Part shown: one piece after another, positions 20,028 to 63,376 of the stretch
Layout of the letters: each line of letters opens with the position of its first letter
Numbering within the stretch: the first letter of the stretch is position 1
Source: a phage
Sequence record: PX104380.1
Length of the DNA: 64,000 bases
Reading direction: 5' to 3' (one strand)
Position numbers and translations under genes: made by a program
The notes under the pieces: generated by a model
The model's database searches: none
What the model was told of the DNA's origin: nothing
The model's input: the letters and a program-made list of their open reading frames with translations, nothing else

Positions 20028-21837
20028 GTTTTACTCGTTTTACCATTTCTTTCATTTTACCTAAATTCCATGGAACAACGCTAGGAGTTCCAAGATATCC
20101 GCATGTTCTTCTTATGGTATTCATCTTTTTAGGATCAGTTTCTCCACAAATAGAACAAACAAATCCGTTTTCAGTAGGAGTCATTTCATGGGTACTTCCA
20201 CATGTAAAACATTTATCTACTGGCATATTAACACCAAAATAATCTAAATGTTGTGCAGCATAATCCCATACGGCCTCAAGACCCTTTAAGTTATTTTTCA
20301 TATCAGGAAGTTCAACATAAGAAATGTGGCCGCCTGTCGCAATGAAATGATATGGCGCTTCACGAGAAATCTTTTCAAACGGAGTAACATTTTCTTCTAC
20401 TGAAACGTGGAAACTGTTAGTGTACCAGCCTTTATCGGTAACATCTTTTACACTTCCATATTTTTCGGTATCAAGTTTACAGAAGCGATAACACAGGTTT
20501 TCAGCAGGAGTAGAATACAAGCTAAAAGCAAATCCGGTTCTTTCTGTCCACTGCTTAAGACGAGCATTCATTTTAGTTAAAATTTCTTGTCCAATATCAC
20601 GACCGACAAGAATATTCAATTCGTGAATACCAATGTATCCTAAGGACACTGAACTTCTACCGTTTTTAAATAACTCAATTATATCATCATCAGGTTTAAG
20701 ACGAACCCCGAATGCACCTTCTTGGTAAAGAATAGGAGCAACAGTCGCTTTAACTCCTTTTAAGGAACTAATTCTACACATCAAAGCTTCAAAACACAGA
20801 TCCATTCGTTCATTAAATAGCTCAACAAATTTCTGCTCATTGAATTGAGTTCCAATATAAGAATCTAATGCGATGCGAGGAAGATTCAATGTTACAACAC
20901 CAAGATTATTACGTCCATCAAGAATTTCATTACCGGTTGAATCTTTCCACACACTCAAGAAACTACGACAACCCATTGGAGAAACAGGAGTAGATGAGCC
21001 GGTGATAGCTTTATTGTTCTTAGCCGAAATGATGTCAGGATACATTCTTTTGCTTGCGCACTCTAGAGCAAGCTGTTTAATATCATAGTTCGGGTCGTCT
21101 TTATAAAGATTAACACCTTCTTCAACGAACATAACAAGTTTAGGGAAAATAGGAGTTATCCCATCACGACCAAGACCTTTAATACGATTTTTCAGAATTG
21201 CTTTCTGAATCATTCGTTCAGTCCAGTCAGTTCCCGTACCAAATGTAATTGTTACAAAAGGCGTTTGTCCGTTTGAACTAAAGAGAGTATTTACTTCATA
21301 TTCATAAGCTTGGAATGCATCGTATACATCTTTTTCTGTTTTAGATTGAGCATAATTCAACGCATCAGCGATTTGCCATTTTTCTGCATCCTCAATATGT
21401 TTTGCATAGGTGCGTTTAACATAAGGAGAAAGTACTTTATCTACATTCGCAAAAGTCGTTCCGCCGTATTGATGGGAAGCAACCTGTGCAGTAATTTGTG
21501 CCATAATTGCAGTAGCAACACCGATTGATTTAGGAGTTTCAATCTGTGCATTACCAAGCTTAAATCCGTTCTCAAGCATTCCTTTTAAATCTACTAAACA
21601 ACAATTAGTAAATGGAAGAGCAGGGGAATAATCAATATCATGGAAATGAATAATTCCGCTTTCATGCGCTTTCATAATAAAAGACGGGACCATATTTTTG
21701 GCAATGTGTTTAGACACAATACCAGCCATAAGGTCCCGTTGAGTTGGAAAAACACGAGAATCTTTATTAGCATTCTCGTTTAAAAGGTCTTTATTAGTTT
21801 TATGAATCAATCCTTCAATTTCTTTTTCAATTGTCAT
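20020..21837 (-). CDS. nrdD: anaerobic ribonucleoside-triphosphate reductase (glycyl radical enzyme), uninterrupted
   Basis: 605 aa single ORF; C-terminal zinc ribbon CFTCGS...CSICG and glycyl radical region. Confidence 0.9.
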   Translation of the reverse strand: MTIEKEIEGLIHKTNKDLLNENANKDSRVFPTQRDLMAGIVSKHIAKNMVPSFIMKAHESGIIHFHDIDYSPALPFTNCCLVDLKGMLENGFKLGNAQIETPKSIGVATAIMAQITAQVASHQYGGTTFANVDKVLSPYVKRTYAKHIEDAEKWQIADALNYAQSKTEKDVYDAFQAYEYEVNTLFSSNGQTPFVTITFGTGTDWTERMIQKAILKNRIKGLGRDGITPIFPKLVMFVEEGVNLYKDDPNYDIKQLALECASKRMYPDIISAKNNKAITGSSTPVSPMGCRSFLSVWKDSTGNEILDGRNNLGVVTLNLPRIALDSYIGTQFNEQKFVELFNERMDLCFEALMCRISSLKGVKATVAPILYQEGAFGVRLKPDDDIIELFKNGRSSVSLGYIGIHELNILVGRDIGQEILTKMNARLKQWTERTGFAFSLYSTPAENLCYRFCKLDTEKYGSVKDVTDKGWYTNSFHVSVEENVTPFEKISREAPYHFIATGGHISYVELPDMKNNLKGLEAVWDYAAQHLDYFGVNMPVDKCFTCGSTHEMTPTENGFVCSICGETDPKKMNTIRRTCGYLGTPSVVPWNLGKMKEMVKRVKHA

Positions 21838-22307
21838 TTTAAACTCTTTCTAAGCTGCTTCTTGAATGAAGCTATTAATTGTGTTTTGGTGTCAGATTCA
21901 TTATATTCAAATCCTCTTTGAAGCATCTCGGCAATCATTTCCTCTTTTCCTAAACGAGAAAATTCCTTTGATTTATCTCCAACAAAGTTAGGGTGAATAT
22001 TATTTTGGGTGTAATCGGATTTTAAATAAGTAAGTAAATTTTCTAACCATTCAAGATAATCAACACCTTGCCCCTTTAAGCCAGAACGATTAAATTTATG
22101 TTTCATTTGACCTTCCGCGGCATTGCAGAGATTACAAAGCAATCCACGTACCTTTCCTGCTTTTGGTCCATTTAATTCATGGTCATGGTCAAGGTGATTA
22201 GCTTGAACATCAGGATTTAATTCTCGTTGGCAAATTAAGCATTTACCATTTTGTGCATCATAAAATTTCTGTTTTTCTTCTTTATATAATTTGCCAGTCA
22301 ATAACAT
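21834..22307 (-). CDS. 49: endonuclease VII (Holliday junction resolvase)
   Basis: 157 aa, same length as T4 gp49; CLIC...CNLC zinc site and HLDHDH. Confidence 0.8.
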   Translation of the reverse strand: MLLTGKLYKEEKQKFYDAQNGKCLICQRELNPDVQANHLDHDHELNGPKAGKVRGLLCNLCNAAEGQMKHKFNRSGLKGQGVDYLEWLENLLTYLKSDYTQNNIHPNFVGDKSKEFSRLGKEEMIAEMLQRGFEYNESDTKTQLIASFKKQLRKSLK

Positions 22308-37455: not shown

Positions 37456-37643
37456 TATTCTTCTACATGTTGTTTACGACCTTTCTTATCAATAAAGGTA
37501 TATTCAACGAATGTTCCAATGTAGTCTTTATCTACATCATGTGGACTATTAATTGGGCATTTAGTACGGCAAATGCGTTCCCATTGACGAATAATTACTG
37601 CTTTGTTTTTAGGATCAAACGGATGTGGGTAATGTACTTTCAT
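37431..37643 (-). CDS. hypothetical protein
   Basis: 70 aa track ORF. Confidence 0.45.
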   Translation of the reverse strand: MKVHYPHPFDPKNKAVIIRQWERICRTKCPINSPHDVDKDYIGTFVEYTFIDKKGRKQHVEEYCLKVTWL

Positions 37644-38094
37644 AATCCACCACTATTAAATCAATATCAGGAGTAAACATGTCGATTAATTTAGAAACCT
37701 TATCCCAATCGCCGCCAGCAATACCACAACCTATACGTGGAATGTAAATTACTGGTTTAAACAAAAGGGTTTCTGCCTGTAGATTTAATTCTATCATGCA
37801 GTTTACTAAAGCACCATAATCAAGATTAGGACCTGGTTCGTATTGCGTATACAAGTTATAACATATGCCAAACCCATTAGGTTTATGTTTAAAAACAATA
37901 GACATATCGCCTAATTTATCACGAGAACCGTACTCAGTAGTGGTTTTATCTATTTCTAAAATTTTGGGATAGGCTCTTGCTAATTGACCAGCTACACCAC
38001 TGCCCATTGTATGAAAACAGTTACACCCGTGCGCAATAATATTACCTTCAAGAAAGAGGGCGACAATATCGCCCTTGATATATTTTACAATCAT
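37615..38094 (-). CDS. macro-domain (ADP-ribose binding/processing) protein
   Basis: 159 aa; IKGDIV, IIAHGCNC and MGSGVAGQLARAYP resemble macro-domain GDIT, VNAAN and GGGVxGAI motifs. Confidence 0.55.
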   Translation of the reverse strand: MIVKYIKGDIVALFLEGNIIAHGCNCFHTMGSGVAGQLARAYPKILEIDKTTTEYGSRDKLGDMSIVFKHKPNGFGICYNLYTQYEPGPNLDYGALVNCMIELNLQAETLLFKPVIYIPRIGCGIAGGDWDKVSKLIDMFTPDIDLIVVDYESTLPTSV

Positions 38095-38438
38095 CTAGTA
38101 CTCAATCCTCGATTATAAGAATCTACTAAACGGTCAACCATTGAATGACAAGCGGCTTTATCTTTTTCCTCCGCAACTGAACATTCTAGGGTATTCCACT
38201 TTTTAGCATATCGTTTTAATAATGTATCGTTTTTGTATCTGCTTGATTTATCTCTTTCTCCGTCTTTATATGCATATATTAATTTCTGCGCAAATTCAGC
38301 TTGGCATGCTTTATTTTTCCCGCAATAATCTGCCGCAGTGCGGTTCACATACTCCCTAATTTCAGTATATGATGTATCTGCTGACGCATAAGCAGAAAAT
38401 GAAATTAATCCTATACATAAAACCAAAATTTTAGTCAT
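38091..38438 (-). CDS. secreted Cys-containing protein
   Basis: 115 aa; N-terminal signal peptide. Confidence 0.5.
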   Translation of the reverse strand: MTKILVLCIGLISFSAYASADTSYTEIREYVNRTAADYCGKNKACQAEFAQKLIYAYKDGERDKSSRYKNDTLLKRYAKKWNTLECSVAEEKDKAACHSMVDRLVDSYNRGLSTR

Positions 38439-38976
38439 TTACTATTTCCAAAAGTTTATTATTTTTAAGGTAATTAGCCTTTTCTAGGACTTCAGAAGCA
38501 TATTTAGAACCTGCTTTAACATTCCATCCCGAATTATAAGAGGATATTGCTTTTCTTATATCGCCCTTATGTATATTTAACCAATAAGAAAGTTCAATGT
38601 ACGCCCAGGAAGCTGAATTGGATCGTTTATTCAACATTCTTTTTATTTCAGCATCGGTCATATTATAACCAAGTTCCTTAACTCTCGCTCGCATAGTAGG
38701 CAAATAATTTTGGAACATTCCGTAAGCATGATGTTTTGGTTTAGATTTTAAATTAACTCCGCCAGAGCTTTCTTGCCATAAAATAGCAGCCATTATATGA
38801 CCTAATCCGCTCTTGTGGATATTTTTGTGTGTTTTATATTTTCCATCCTTAGAAAATTGTTCCCCGAATTGATACGCGTAACGCATGTTATCGAGTTGGA
38901 CATTACTGAAAGTATGCTCGGAGCTATGTGCCATCATTGAAATGGCCAATAGACCAGCGAGTAGTGCTTTTCTCAT
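38431..38976 (-). CDS. secreted protein with lytic-transglycosylase-like motif
   Basis: 181 aa; signal peptide; AILWQESSGG resembles the SLT catalytic E-S motif. Confidence 0.45.
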   Translation of the reverse strand: MRKALLAGLLAISMMAHSSEHTFSNVQLDNMRYAYQFGEQFSKDGKYKTHKNIHKSGLGHIMAAILWQESSGGVNLKSKPKHHAYGMFQNYLPTMRARVKELGYNMTDAEIKRMLNKRSNSASWAYIELSYWLNIHKGDIRKAISSYNSGWNVKAGSKYASEVLEKANYLKNNKLLEIVND

Positions 38977-38983
38977 GTTTACC

Positions 38984-39445
38984 TCATTGAGTTTTAATTA
39001 CTGCTTTAGAAGCCTTTCCTGGTAAACGACGACTGTTGATAATTGCCATCCTACATTGAAGTGACGGGTCTTTGAACTTCTCATTAGGTTTACAAACTGT
39101 AAATCCAAGCCAAAGATTTCCATCTGTAATTTCTAAACGTCCAGGACGATATTCAACTCCATCAATAAAATCCTCATCAATGTCAGGACGCGGAGGCATA
39201 CTCAGGAATTCATTAACTTCTAAAACATGGTCTTTTATTTTATGGAATAATTCAAAAACATATGTCTCATCAATCTCCCGTTGAATTGCACGATCAAGAA
39301 GATGTTGAGAATATTTTAGATGAAACGATGAGACCCCTGCTGCTTTTGATGCCTCACGAATCTCATTGTTAATTTGACGAAACTCCGACTCAAAGTGACG
39401 ACGAAGCTTATTTCGACGGATAAAAACTTCTGTATTGATAGTCAT
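38984..39445 (-). CDS. regB: RegB site-specific endoribonuclease
   Basis: 153 aa, same length as T4 RegB; ATG at 39443-39445 behind an early promoter. Confidence 0.7.
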   Translation of the reverse strand: MTINTEVFIRRNKLRRHFESEFRQINNEIREASKAAGVSSFHLKYSQHLLDRAIQREIDETYVFELFHKIKDHVLEVNEFLSMPPRPDIDEDFIDGVEYRPGRLEITDGNLWLGFTVCKPNEKFKDPSLQCRMAIINSRRLPGKASKAVIKTQ

Positions 39446-39504: not shown

Positions 39505-39825
39505 TTATTCTTTAAATCTAATCAATTTATTCATAGACTTTGAAACTTCTGCACGAACCTCATGTAAGTTTTTAAGCTGTTCAAGACGCTGCGTATAGTA
39601 AGCAATTTCATCTTCTTCGAGACAGTCCTGTGAATCTTCTTTAAGATAACGTGCATAGTCCTGAAAAGCTTTACGGACTACTTCCTGGAAGTCATCAAGA
39701 CTTTGAATTTTCTTAGGAGCGGCAGATACACGACGAGGTGCAGTATAATACTCATAACCAAACCCTGCACTTAATTGAGCCATTAGTATTTTTCCTCTGG
39801 TTGGAACACTGCACGACAAGCCCAC
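39505..39825 (-). CDS. hypothetical protein (vs.x region)
   Basis: 106 aa track ORF. Confidence 0.45.
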
Positions 39826-40085
39826 ATACTGGCTTCTTTGAGTTTCGTTTTAGCAATAGTTAACTGATCGAGGCTTTCAGCATAATTCTTCGCGAGTTCA
39901 TCATCTTCACAGCTATCAAATGCTTCCCAAAATTCATCGTATAAAGCATCAAAGATAAGTCCTAAACGAACTTCAGCGTCTTTGATAGCATTCACTTTAC
40001 TGATTTTCTCTTCGGTATGCGGCTTATAACCCTTAATATCTTCAATCATATTTGACTTCCTTACCAGTACATAAATCATATTCAA
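39783..40085 (-). CDS. hypothetical acidic protein (vs.x region)
   Basis: 100 aa. Confidence 0.45.
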
Positions 40086-40263
40086 CTAAACGAATAGGTT
40101 CATGAATGCCATATCCCTGAACAGAAATTTCTGTCGTGGGATAAATTCCATCAATATCACCCATATTCCAGGCTTCATTAAATTGCTGTTCGCCTGAATT
40201 ACTAAACCACTCGGCGAAAGCATTTAGCACATCTTCAGAACCTTCAATAATTATCTTTGCCAT
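40042..40263 (-). CDS. hypothetical acidic protein (vs.x region)
   Basis: 73 aa. Confidence 0.45.
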   Translation of the reverse strand: MAKIIIEGSEDVLNAFAEWFSNSGEQQFNEAWNMGDIDGIYPTTEISVQGYGIHEPIRLVEYDLCTGKEVKYD

Positions 40264-40625
40264 TACAAACTCTCGGTGAAGGTACGAGCGATAACGTCGC
40301 GCTGCTGTTCCGGAGTCAGAGAGTTAAAGCGAACTGCATAACCGGATACACGGATGGTCAGCTGCGGATATTTTTCCGGATGCTTAACTGCATCTTCCAG
40401 AGTTTCACGACGCAGAACGTTAACGTTCAGGTGTTGACCACCTTCAATTTTAACTGTAGGTTGTGTTTCAATTTCAATTTCACGGGCATGCAAACCGTAG
40501 AAAATTTCCGGGTCTACAAAAGAGTCCTCTTTAAAGGTTTTAGAGACAATAATTCGTGCTTGAATACCATCTTCAAAATAAATAGTACCTTTATGTGTGC
40601 CTTCAAGAATTTGATATGCTTTCAT
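40263..40625 (-). CDS. autonomous glycyl radical cofactor (GrcA/YfiD-like)
   Basis: 120 aa; C-terminal [31 protein letters not shown] matches the glycyl-radical motif RVSGY. Confidence 0.8.
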
Positions 40626-40632
40626 ATAAACC

Positions 40633-41013
40633 TCAATTAGAAAATAAATTTATCCAAGATTGTTCTTTAATTAAAAACGGCTCAGAATCATATGCCATTA
40701 AACTTTGCGTAATTAATCCTTTAAAAGGTCCATCAATAAATTCCATGGTAAAATATGGAATTTTATTCATTAGCCGTGCATTAGGAGCAGTACATAAAAC
40801 TCTGCATCCTTTGAATACACCTTTTTGTAATTTGTATTGCTTGGGATAAAATTCGCTCAAAATGTTATTATTTGCTAAAATTTCAAAATGATTCACCAAT
40901 TTATTTTTAATAGTTTTTGGCGAAAAATAAAGATATTCGAAAAGTTGCGTATCTGTCATCATTGCATTCCAATTACGAAAAACTGCGGACGAGTAATACC
41001 ACCAATACAGCAT
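40633..41013 (-). CDS. hypothetical protein
   Basis: 126 aa; likely starts at internal Met near 40960 overlapping the upstream stop. Confidence 0.45.
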
Positions 41014-41612
41014 TTACTATTGCAGCAATATTGCACAGTTTCAATATGAATATCGTAAATTTTATCCATATCAGGAGATTTAACAGGCTCATCGATTATA
41101 TACAAAATTCGAGAAAGCGATAAACCTCTGAACTTGCTACCTCTATTACCAACAAAACTACGGACAGAATCAGTAAATAAACGAAAACGTATATCATCAT
41201 TAGAATAACGCGAAAATTCCTTTTTAATGTTATTTGCAGAAATTTCAGCGTAAGCTGAAGTATTAGAAAGAACAATAACTGTTCCGCCATCATACAGCCA
41301 ATTAGCAGCAAAGTTAGTCACAGCAATTGATTTACCGGATTGACGTCCACCATCTATACGAAGTGTGCAGTACTGTTTAAGTAATTCTTCAAATGGCGGG
41401 ATATATTCGTTTTTACAAATTTCTTCTACTCTAGCATCAGAATGGTGTGTAAAAGCATTCATCAGGGATAGATACGGGCCAGTTAAAAATGTTCTCATAT
41501 TATTTCTCTTAAGGTTTTTGGGCCATTCCATGGCACATGAGTTGTCCATTCCTGCATTACCCATTACCGCACTTGGGCTCGACCTTATTACAGGTTGGCG
41601 GGAATCCCTCAT
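40959..41612 (-). CDS. small P-loop NTPase of unknown function
   Basis: Walker A GGRQSGKS and Walker B ILYIIDEP; several in-frame Met starts. Confidence 0.55.
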   Translation of the reverse strand: MRDSRQPVIRSSPSAVMGNAGMDNSCAMEWPKNLKRNNMRTFLTGPYLSLMNAFTHHSDARVEEICKNEYIPPFEELLKQYCTLRIDGGRQSGKSIAVTNFAANWLYDGGTVIVLSNTSAYAEISANNIKKEFSRYSNDDIRFRLFTDSVRSFVGNRGSKFRGLSLSRILYIIDEPVKSPDMDKIYDIHIETVQYCCNSKCCIGGITRPQFFVIGMQ

Positions 41613-41641
41613 AGAATCATGAGGTCCAGGTTGTTCCCATA

Positions 41642-42115
41642 TTATTTGAACGATTTAACGTACTGAATAGAACCTTTACTATTTACAAAGGCAATTTTAC
41701 CATTTTTATTATACATGGTAGCAGTACGTTGATAACCATAAGTTTGTTTACCAGATTGATAACCAACTAATGCGAAATTATCTTCGCCCATTTTATTCTG
41801 TTTAGCGCGAATGCGTTCATGACCATGTGCCATAAGAACCTTAGCATCACCAGTTACAATGGATCGACGAGTTTTTTCATCTTCAACTGTATTAACAAAG
41901 TCGTCAAATGAATCAAATTTAGCATGAGATTTATTATACAGTTTTCCATCTACTGCATAATTATATCCCTGTACATCCATCTCAACTTCTGTACCATCAT
42001 CCAATACAGCAGTAATTTTCTGTCCTTTTTTAAATTTCAAAAGATCAGTAAAAGATTCAGCAATAATTTGAGAATTAATAGCTGCTTCAGTGATAAATTC
42101 TTGATATGTTTTCAT
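41642..42115 (-). CDS. capsid internal protein (IPII/IPIII-like)
   Basis: 157 aa beginning MKTYQEFITEA, the capsid-targeting sequence of T4 internal proteins; upstream of gene e. Confidence 0.7.
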   Translation of the reverse strand: MKTYQEFITEAAINSQIIAESFTDLLKFKKGQKITAVLDDGTEVEMDVQGYNYAVDGKLYNKSHAKFDSFDDFVNTVEDEKTRRSIVTGDAKVLMAHGHERIRAKQNKMGEDNFALVGYQSGKQTYGYQRTATMYNKNGKIAFVNSKGSIQYVKSFK

Positions 42116-42168
42116 GTGTTTCCTTTAAATATTTTAATTAGTAATTTGTCTCTTCAAGCAACTGTGAA

Positions 42169-42198
42169 TATACTATCACAATTCTAGGAGAAAGTAAA
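42169..42198 (-). promoter_or_regulatory. T4-type early promoter
   Basis: Plus agtaaac at 42192-42198; -10 around 42169-42174. Confidence 0.4.
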
Positions 42199-42203
42199 CA
42201 ACT

Positions 42204-42734
<531 letters not shown>

Positions 42735-43190
42735 TTAAAAGAGGCTGTTCATTATTCGGTAAAGTGAAGGACCCATCACATATTGCCACTGAGTACGAGG
42801 AATAAGAGCAAAAGCATCCATCTCTGGAATCATAACGCCATCTTTATTTTCAAAATAAGACTCGCAATGGCAATTTCTGAACATCTCATGCTCTACTGGA
42901 ATCGTATAATAAAATAACTGTAAGTCTTTATTACTAGAATATTTAAATACACCTAGGTCTTCTAGAAGGTCTGGATTATAATTGCTAAAACCGGTCTCTT
43001 CTAAGCATTCTCTTTTTGCAGCTTCCAATGCATTCAAATCAGAATTTTCTACGCGGCCCTTTGGAATATCCCAACGATGTGCCATCATTCCAGGCTTACG
43101 AGAACCAGTAACCCGACCCATAAATAAATCTTTATCTTCTGTCATAAAGATAATACCAGCTGATAGTGTTTTCATTTTAATTTCCTGCAT
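42735..43190 (-). CDS. nudE: Nudix hydrolase
   Basis: 151 aa; Nudix box GRVENSDLNALEAAKRECLEETGF. Confidence 0.85.
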   Translation of the reverse strand: MQEIKMKTLSAGIIFMTEDKDLFMGRVTGSRKPGMMAHRWDIPKGRVENSDLNALEAAKRECLEETGFSNYNPDLLEDLGVFKYSSNKDLQLFYYTIPVEHEMFRNCHCESYFENKDGVMIPEMDAFALIPRTQWQYVMGPSLYRIMNSLF

Positions 43191-62509: not shown

Positions 62510-63376
62510 ATGTTCATTCAAGAACCAAAGAAATTGATTGATACCGGCGAAATTGGTAACGCTTCTACTGGTGATATCTTATTCGACGGTGGTAATAAAA
62601 TTAATAGTGATTTTAACGCAATTTATAACGCGTTTGGCGATCAACGTAAAATGGCAGTAGCAAATGGCACTGGAGCAGATGGTCAAATTATCCATGCTAC
62701 TGGATATTATCAAAAACATTCTATTGCAGAGTATGCAACTCCAGTAAAAGTTGGCACTAGGCATGATATTGATACCTCTACTGTAGGTGTTAAAGTTATC
62801 ATTGAAAGAGGCGAACTTGGCGACTGCGTTGAATTTATTAACTCAAATGGATCAATATCAGTTACTAATCCTTTAACGATTCAAGCTATTGATTCAATTA
62901 AAGGCGTTTCAGGTAATTTAGTAGTAACTAGTCCATATAGTAAAGTTACCTTACGTTGTATTTCATCTGATAATTCTACGTCGGTTTGGAATTATTCTAT
63001 TGAAAGTATGTTTGGTCAAAAGGAATCACCTGCTGAAGGTACATGGAATATTTCTACATCTGGATCAGTTGACATTCCACTATTTCATCGCACTGAATAC
63101 AATATGGCTAAATTGCTAGTTACGTGCCAATCAGTAGATGGAAGAAAAATTAAAACAGCAGAAATAAATATTCTTGTGGATACTGTTAATTCAGAAGTTA
63201 TTTCTTCTGAGTATGCTGTCATGCGAGTTGGAAATGAAACAGAAGAAGACGAAATCGCTAATATTGCATTTAGTATTAAAGAAAATTACGTAACGGCGAC
63301 TATAAATTCTTCAACTGTCGGCATGAGAGCAGCAGTTAAAGTTATCGCTACGCAGAAAATCGGGGTGGCTCAATAA
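62510..63376 (+). CDS. 9: baseplate wedge / tail-fibre socket protein
   Basis: 288 aa, same length as T4 gp9; synteny. Confidence 0.9.
   Translation: MFIQEPKKLIDTGEIGNASTGDILFDGGNKINSDFNAIYNAFGDQRKMAVANGTGADGQIIHATGYYQKHSIAEYATPVKVGTRHDIDTSTVGVKVIIERGELGDCVEFINSNGSISVTNPLTIQAIDSIKGVSGNLVVTSPYSKVTLRCISSDNSTSVWNYSIESMFGQKESPAEGTWNISTSGSVDIPLFHRTEYNMAKLLVTCQSVDGRKIKTAEINILVDTVNSEVISSEYAVMRVGNETEEDEIANIAFSIKENYVTATINSSTVGMRAAVKVIATQKIGVAQ

Follow-up and report, generated by a model that had tools for sequence, protein, structure and literature searches.

A candidate structured RNA ahead of the vs.8-vs.7 gene pair of T4-like phages, beside a T2-type cassette without denV

Introduction

In the annotation of phage T4T, the genes vs.6, vs.7, vs.8, denV, ipII, ipIII and e follow one another in this order, with denV-ipII-ipIII forming the cassette between vs.8 and e. 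Phage T2 is classically without v gene function, and a T2-type cassette that lacks denV is an already known, classical state. Here we describe the corresponding locus in a 64-kb (64,000-nucleotide) stretch of sequence record PX104380.1 (the window), a segment of a Tequatrovirus (T-even) genome that shares 95-98% DNA identity with hundreds of Escherichia, Shigella and Yersinia phages. Among complete genomes, that of vB_EcoM_G4507 (G4507 below; 168.8 kb) is the closest, with 98.2% identity to the window across 24 kb. A first-pass annotation of this DNA had reported an NTPase and a second small open reading frame (ORF) in the place of denV. We identify these two genes as vs.8 and vs.7 of T4 and describe a conserved, predicted structured RNA ahead of vs.8.

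T4 Vs.8 (UniProt P13318) and Vs.7 (P13317) are "conserved hypothetical" early proteins, and the supplement of PMC9697503 lists vs.7 and vs.8 with early RNA and early protein. For the RNA, the nearest described systems are the RNAs bound by CsrA/RsmA, namely the CsrB/RsmZ sponges and the CsrA-repressed leaders. A CsrA dimer can bridge paired GGA sites spaced ~18 nucleotides (nt) apart, and the CsrA consensus is A/U-C-A-N-G-G-A-N-G-U/A. In two papers, GGA in hairpin loops beside the ribosome-binding site is given as the signature of a CsrA/RsmA target (PMC4894983, PMC13443453).

Results and Discussion

Gene model of vs.8

Both ORFs of the first-pass annotation, of 217 amino acids (aa; 40959-41612) and 126 aa (40633-41013), are present on the minus strand. 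The larger one does encode a Walker A/B protein, GGRQSGKS and LYIIDEP being read in its translation. The lengths did not hold, the true Vs.8 and Vs.7 having 179 aa and 109 aa. T4 Vs.8 matches the window by tblastn with 86% identity over its full length (E 2e-128). The features of the vs.8-vs.7 region, all on the minus strand as is every gene at the locus, are as follows.

40633-40962, minus strand: vs.7 orthologue, 109 aa; 99.1% identity to T4 Vs.7 over 109 aa; PHROG 2049, E 5e-54
40959-41498, minus strand: vs.8 orthologue, 179 aa (MRTFLTG...GMQ); predicted stand-alone RecA-like/ASCE P-loop ATPase domain
41085-41108, minus strand: Walker B of Vs.8, ILYIIDEP, residues 131-138, with an FRGLSL motif before it; aligns to gp17 VRGNSF..MIYIDEC
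41328-41351, minus strand: Walker A/P-loop of Vs.8, GGRQSGKS, residues 50-57, with residues invariant in 42 homologues; aligns to gp17 SRQLGKT
41499-41519, minus strand: spacer with a Shine-Dalgarno-like AAGAGA 8 nt ahead of the ATG at 41498, read from the sequence
41520-41639, minus strand: predicted structured RNA element of ~120 nt, helices P1-P6; covariance model R1, 105.7 bits, E 8e-29

The true start of vs.8 is the ATG at 41498. The match to PHROG 1488 covers residues 41-217 of the 217-aa ORF (E 4e-78), and when 1.84 billion representatives were scanned exhaustively with HMMER, 41 clusters of the Vs.8 family were returned, nearly all of 170-185 aa and all starting with MRTF/MKxL (aligned from MRTFLTG/MKxLT). 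The label vs.8 is carried by the records of T4T, RB14, PP01, AR1 and CC31; the protein is annotated at 179-189 aa in RB14, Jbel and G4507 and at 216-219 aa in the T4 records. When the DNA of the window, T4T, RB14 and Jbel was aligned, the ~120 nt upstream of the vs.8 start proved nearly invariant yet interrupted by frame-breaking indels. The window differs from T4 by a -1 and a +4 indel in this block, RB14 is out of frame, and the spacer ahead of vs.8 differs among phages by non-multiples of three bases. The -1/+4 pair is the reason why residues 18-38 of the long form are wholly unlike T4 while residues 1-17 are identical.

The first 38 codons (5' 114 nt) of the 217-aa ORF are best read, from these alignments, as belonging to the conserved RNA element and not to Vs.8, and the T4 reference model of Vs.8 is probably wrong by 38 codons. 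A 34-aa "hypothetical protein" is annotated by RefSeq wholly on the element in G4507 (locus L064, 12733-12837; positions 62732-62836 of the record). This ORF and the fusion to Vs.8 in T4 are two annotation artefacts of one cause, the RNA element.

The 217-aa ORF could instead be the real Vs.8, its 5' block encoding a conserved N-terminal peptide (MRDSRQPVIRSSPSAVMG...; from the upstream ATG, MRDSRQP...) rather than an RNA. The lengths in the T4 records agree with this reading, as do the first 17 codons shared by T4 and the window and a frame that is open in seven Tequatrovirus-type variants. We regard it as highly improbable: non-multiple-of-three indels disrupt the frame among close relatives, 32 of the 44 distinct full-length copies of the block carry stops in all three frames, and the block either lies in another frame or meets a stop in Klebsiella, Karamvirus and Erwinia phages. 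The same block also lies ahead of unrelated ip genes, changes at its paired positions are compensatory, and the family profile begins only at residue 39-41. What weighs against our shorter model is that the long ORF is open across the element in T4 and in the window, and a minor N-terminally extended isoform is possible.

Distribution and conservation of the RNA element

The element (minus strand) spans the interval from the ip4 stop codon to the vs.8 ribosome-binding site and has ~51% G+C in A+T-rich surroundings. The same block is found ahead of vs.8 in Klebsiella phages, Karamvirus CC31, Dhakavirus and Erwinia phages, where Vs.8 is only ~40% identical and where the block frequently holds stops in the "Vs.8 frame." Its conservation is at least as high as that of the adjacent coding sequence (84% versus 65% in Klebsiella phage K65). 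Pattern scans recovered 38 loci from IMG/VR and 18 from metagenomes, and almost all of these lie on contigs 160-175 kb long; in 185,579 genomes of bacteria and archaea the scans found no copy. Among 66 distinct instances, 55 lie ahead of vs.8, six lie ahead of an ip gene and five have divergent 3' halves. The covariance model found exactly one copy in the window and one in the complete G4507 genome.

Two arrangements bear on the link between the element and vs.8. In T2 (L083, MH751506; 5761-6121 and 6314-6434), the element is intact at 98 bits though vs.8 is broken, which suggests either that retention of the RNA does not depend on Vs.8 or that the loss of vs.8 is recent. In Klebsiella T4-like phages, a second copy lies ~40 nt before the start of the internal-protein gene (MKTYKEF...; locus L004, 935-1077 and 1474-1604, with further loci of the Klebsiella type in L029, L045, L047, L069 and L077), and therefore the element is not tied to vs.8 alone.

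Some Erwinia and Enterobacter phages carry tandem copies (L005, 1325-1578; L031, 8967-9220; L052, 5051-5304; L081, 309-562), the first without the P5/P6 GGA hairpins and the second, directly after it, with a shortened P2 and the hairpins kept. Partial matches to the P1/P3/P4 core (24-53 bits) were also found, with neighbors unlike those of the vs.8 region (L067, 1260-1347; L076, 4081-4166; L056, 6722-6753); after the one in L067 come a sigma-70-like promoter and an unrelated ORF of 152 aa. Such partial matches may represent a more distant branch of the RNA family.

No match to Rfam 15 was found at E up to 1, either with window positions 40000-42800 or with four loci carrying long-type and insertion variants. 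Literature searches for a link of CsrA with T4, or of structured RNAs with T4-like phages, returned nothing on the element. A 2023 catalogue holds >10,000 candidate viral RNAs, among which the element could be listed unnamed. The element thus appears to be uncatalogued in Rfam and in the literature searched; it is present in T4 and appears to be found only in genomes of T4-like phages.

Predicted structure

The first RNAalifold run, on a MAFFT alignment, gave only P1, P4 and a doubtful long-range helix. This helix was dropped for P3, P5 and P6, which were set after hand inspection of the variants, and covariance model R1 was built on the resulting hand-derived structure. On the model-based alignment, paired cells amount to 86.7%; sliding the partners by 1-3 columns lowers this to 25-45%. 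For covariation the alignment scores 0.24 and shuffles score 0.10, none of the 500 reaching 0.24. Sixteen of the 33 pairs have changed on both sides, including all five P1 pairs, and such changes are seen in P1, P3, P4, P5 and P6. These results argue for a conserved structured RNA with six predicted helices, P1-P6, and covariation support.

Two points weigh against this structure. Because the alignment had been fitted to the model, the pair counts are biased toward structure, and the sequences are related. The window copy by itself is thermodynamically ordinary, its folding being no better than that of shuffled sequence (z = 0.29); the structure rests on covariation among related phages.

In the predicted fold, P1 closes a variable hairpin domain, P2: copies of the T4 type have a short P2, the others a helix in two parts. 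Enclosed by P3 are hairpin P4 (ACCU-GUAAUA-AGGU) and a stretch of 18 nt (CGAGCCCAAGUGCGGUAA), both invariant. Every complete member has an invariant A-N-G-G-A in the loops of hairpins P5 and P6, at a distance of 17-19 nt, and P6 ends 10-25 nt ahead of the vs.8 start codon. The ANGGA loops and their spacing stay constant while the stems vary. Insertion variants carry extra GGA hairpins (GGC-AAGGA-GCC, CAGC-AAGGAU-GCUG and GGCAU..CAGGAUGCC); variants with an insertion at P5 or a replaced 3' half are seen in L049 (107-277), L057 (1880-2050) and L042 (1838-1976), with up to six GGA motifs in L049.

Within the invariant stretch GAGCCCAAGUGCGG (in the window, inside 41564-41586), a mini-hairpin C-C-C/G-C-G keeps a C-C mismatch in most phages. 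In several phages this mismatch (C81 and C88 in L014 numbering) is changed to a G-C pair (GAGCGC...GCG).

Other readings of the element were tried and set aside. A k-turn in P2 does not fit the spacing, and from the paired deletions P2 is a plain helix interrupted by an internal loop. RegB cleavage sites (GGAG) were rejected, the invariant motifs never being GGAG, as were tRNA-like and terminator readings, there being no U-tract. Promoter and terminator scans at the locus scored no better than with shuffled sequence.

Possible roles of the element

The element would be the 5' leader of the vs.8-vs.7 message. Most likely, this leader would bind a protein at the two ANGGA loops upstream of the ribosome-binding site, resulting in control of translation or of message stability. 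Host CsrA, bound at P5 and P6, is the most plausible candidate, although we hold CsrA binding to be rather unlikely. A fuller proposal, which we hold just as tentatively, is that the element is a new phage-specific RNA class whose ANGGA loops bind CsrA, so that the early message from vs.8-vs.7 to regB would be under CsrA control, or CsrA would be titrated; P1-P4 would then have a second function, for example in protein or ligand binding, possibly of Vs.8/Vs.7.

The resemblance to CsrA/RsmA-binding RNAs lies in the two GGA motifs, placed in hairpin loops just 5' of the ribosome-binding site and spaced 17-19 nt, close to the spacing that a CsrA dimer can bridge. P6 of CC31-type variants (C-AUGGAA-G) fits the consensus quoted above, and insertion variants add GGA hairpins. 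However, most copies of the element have only two sites, there is no match to Rfam CsrB/RsmZ, and the ~90 nt conserved P1-P4 structure is without a Csr counterpart.

The block might also act as DNA, as a fixed homology boundary for the swapping of ip/denV cassettes by recombination, with no function as RNA. The PeSL cassettes of T4-type phages offer a parallel, as conserved noncoding blocks that border a hyperplastic region and sometimes occur twice. For phages that carry different cassettes, the homology sets in exactly at the 5' end of the block, and in some Klebsiella phages the second copy, upstream of an ip gene, brackets a cassette. Unlike PeSL cassettes, the element is G+C-rich, holds no early-promoter hexamers, is much longer and has several helices with covariation. 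Recombination needs identity and not compensatory changes, whereas P1, P3, P4, P5 and P6 have changed on both sides, and the ANGGA motifs are invariant at fixed spacing while the stems vary. We therefore think it unlikely that the block acts as DNA only, although a DNA-boundary role and an RNA role of the element are compatible and not mutually exclusive.

Vs.8 as a terminase-like ATPase domain

Vs.8 has the features of a P-loop ASCE ATPase, namely a Walker A motif GxxxxGK[ST], a Walker B motif hhhhDE and a RecA-like beta-sheet core. The AlphaFold model (pLDDT 87, pTM 0.86) has a five-stranded RecA-like core and an N-terminal helical hairpin, and the protein ends at residue 179, directly beyond the fifth core strand. 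Across the 42 homologues, down to 33% identity, G51, R52, Q53, G55 and K56 in Walker A are invariant, and L132 and E137 (Walker B), R113, R124, G125 and the C-terminal G177 and Q179 are also kept. A profile comparison with gp17, the terminase large subunit, by hhalign (E 6.7e-5, probability 64%) pairs GGRQSGKS with LSRQLGKT and FRGLSL..ILYIIDEP with VRGNSF..MIYIDEC. Pfam matches were sub-threshold only, with Terminase_6N in 34 and AAA_14 in 38 of the 42 members; the best family member reaches E 6.8e-5 for Terminase_6N and the window Vs.8 scores 12.5 bits against a cut-off of 22, missing the gathering threshold. Sequence searches of PDB chains with Vs.8 profiles gave no match below E 0.05.

Taken together with the model, Vs.8 is predicted to be a stand-alone, terminase-like RecA/ASCE ATPase domain in which Walker A, Walker B and the catalytic Glu are all intact; with the ATPase domains of terminase large subunits it shares a P-loop of the Arg-Gln type (GRQSGKS) and the signature FRG-x-S...hhhIDE. 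It was considered, and rejected, as a terminase large subunit itself. An RNase H-like nuclease domain and ATPase subdomain II are missing and the scores stay under the cut-offs, so Vs.8 is not filed as a terminase. It further differs from the gp17 N-terminal subdomain (Terminase_6N) in being a protein of only ~180 aa without a portal-binding region, and in early rather than late expression. Compared with the first RecA domain of SF2 helicases (DEAD-box DDX1, RIG-I, Mfd), Vs.8 is without a second RecA domain and without motifs Q, Ia, Ib, SAT and VI and therefore cannot be a monomeric helicase.

We infer that Vs.8 may hydrolyze ATP as a small accessory motor or switch. Early in infection it would probably act, as an oligomer or with the co-translated Vs.7, on a substrate that is either nucleic acid or protein. 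The need for an oligomer or a partner is suggested by the single RecA domain and by invariant Arg113 and Arg124, which are candidate trans-acting fingers. Vs.8 would have no part in ultraviolet repair. The T2 annotation splits vs.8 into vs.8-A and vs.8-B, two fragments, because of which Vs.8 can be considered dispensable in the laboratory.

The start of vs.7 overlaps the stop codon of vs.8 by 4 nt (ATGA). Homologues of Vs.7 with 34-43% identity lie immediately 3' of vs.8, with the same stop/start overlap, in CC31, Erwinia phage COW86c and Klebsiella phage K65, and precomputed tables assign them PF26834. As the vs.7 homologues hold this overlapped position in all three phages, vs.8-vs.7 appears to be a conserved, translationally coupled pair.

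Some points speak against assigning the two proteins a joint role. Literature searches on vs.8, vs.7 and regB gave no account of a function, biochemical or genetic, of either protein, returning false "vs.8" matches or nothing. The AlphaFold model of Vs.7, built with three sequences, is unusable (pLDDT 46), so that the proposed Vs.8-Vs.7 partnership rests solely on gene order.

A different role would be that of an early mimic of the terminase ATPase, which blunts or diverts Avs-type sensors of the terminase large subunit and has no substrate of its own. The terminase-like fold and motifs, the missing nuclease domain and the early expression would suit such a mimic, as would the dispensability of Vs.8, split in T2, and a vs cluster that holds counter-defense genes, judging by the vs.4 equivalent of COW86c labelled Acb2-like anti-CBASS. 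However, the Walker A Lys, the Walker B Asp-Glu and two Arg are invariant in the 42 homologues, which argues for catalysis rather than mimicry. We consider the mimic improbable and favor an ATP-hydrolyzing Vs.8.

The cassette and the absence of denV

The remaining features of the locus are listed below; vs, vs.1 and regB were located by tblastn with T4T proteins.

38091-38438, minus strand: vs
38431-38976, minus strand: vs.1
38984-39445, minus strand: regB
40263-40625, minus strand: vs.6, encoding a GrcA-like glycyl-radical protein, downstream neighbor of vs.7; 99.2% identity to T4 Vs.6; Pfam Gly_radical, E 2e-18
41642-42115, minus strand: gene for an Ip4-type internal virion protein, 157 aa; Pfam DUF7412, E 2.5e-95; PHROG 3155; labelled Ip4 in RB14 and T2
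42204-42698, minus strand: e, soluble lysozyme, at the far edge of the variable cassette; 98.2% identity to T4 e

Collinear matches to T4T proteins were obtained in the window for vs (99%), vs.1 (100%), regB (100%), vs.3 (98%), vs.4 (94%), vs.5 (99%), vs.6 (99%), vs.7 (99%), vs.8 (86%), e (98%) and nudE (96%). The order and orientation of vs.8 and vs.7, their stop/start overlap and the flank on the vs.6 side are those of T4. The difference is the upstream neighbor of vs.8, which is Ip4 here and denV in T4. The cassette between vs.8 and e is denV-ipII-ipIII in T4, an Ip4-like gene plus denV in Salmonella phage Jbel, denV plus small ORFs in CC31, and Ip4 alone in RB14, G4507, T2 and the window. 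The T4 block denV-ipII-ipIII is replaced here by a single Ip4-type gene, as in T2 and RB14, with which the window shares vs.8, Ip4 and e in content and order, the absence of denV and the RNA element immediately 3' of the ip4 stop codon; vs.8 is intact in the window, in contrast with its two fragments in T2. The locus is thus very probably the standard T-even early block vs.8-vs.7 adjoining a T2-type internal-protein/denV cassette.

As the first-pass annotation had stated, no denV is recognizable in the window. Searches of the 64 kb by tblastn with T4 DenV and a DenV of the 78% class (E up to 10) found none, save a local match of 49 residues within gp49. This match (21849-21995, minus strand; DenV residues 56-101, 43% identity, E 1.5e-4) sits in the C-terminal half of gp49/endonuclease VII (gene 21834-22307). 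It was rejected as a denV remnant, being the C-terminal part of endonuclease VII. The endonuclease VII orthologue of G4507 is without a DenV-like match at E up to 10. A local similarity between endonucleases VII and V has reportedly been noted earlier. The search was extended to the complete G4507 genome, where no DenV match was found at E up to 10 either; DenV is present in 1,112 phage records. For the window, the absence of denV is confirmed; for the genome as a whole, of which the search covered 64 kb, it is probable, and denV might in principle sit in the remainder. The view of denV loss as a T2-type trait agrees with the vs.8-Ip4-e layout, which is identical to that of T2 and RB14.

The same annotation had proposed that a novel P-loop NTPase and a small ORF were acquired in place of denV. 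What speaks for this is the missing denV and the position of the NTPase as the next enzyme-like gene beside the internal-protein gene. It had itself named a match of the NTPase to a known T4 vs.x gene as decisive against the proposal, and such a match is what we found, Vs.8 being an orthologue of T4 Vs.8 and the second ORF T4 vs.7. By annotation and by tblastn, T4 has both genes, in the same order, adjoining denV. Furthermore, vs.8 is present in ~1,000 phage records, with denV present or not, and occurs together with denV in CC31 and Jbel. The proposal is already refuted and its probability is negligible. Because T4 has vs.8 and vs.7 too, the pair is no substitute for denV: they are ordinary T4 genes, and denV is their neighbor in T4, not their counterpart.

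Other genes of the vs block were also noted. At its start lies tk.4 (37615-38094), encoding a 159-aa macro-domain (A1pp/Appr-1-p) protein that is labelled as a phosphatase motif in the T4 and T2 records. The vs.4 gene, 94% identical to T4 Vs.4 as listed above, is located at 39783-40049. An Acb2-like anti-CBASS protein is annotated within the vs block of the Erwinia phage (L005, 2876-3154; COW86c record), which would be the equivalent of T4 Vs.4/Acb2. Going by this record label, the vs cluster around vs.8 includes counter-defense genes.

Conclusions

The claim from which this analysis started proved largely ordinary, consisting of T4 genes already known and a loss of denV of the known T2 type, and the RNA element alone merits follow-up. 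The corrected model of Vs.8 gives a predicted minimal terminase-like ATPase that is kept, with Vs.7, across enterobacterial T4-like phages, and offers a tractable two-gene module for genetics. In T4, the phage studied best of all, there appears to be an uncatalogued RNA whose structure has covariation support and whose loop motifs are of the CsrA type. If functional, this element would tie early gene expression of T-even phages to a host post-transcriptional regulator, a link that is directly testable.

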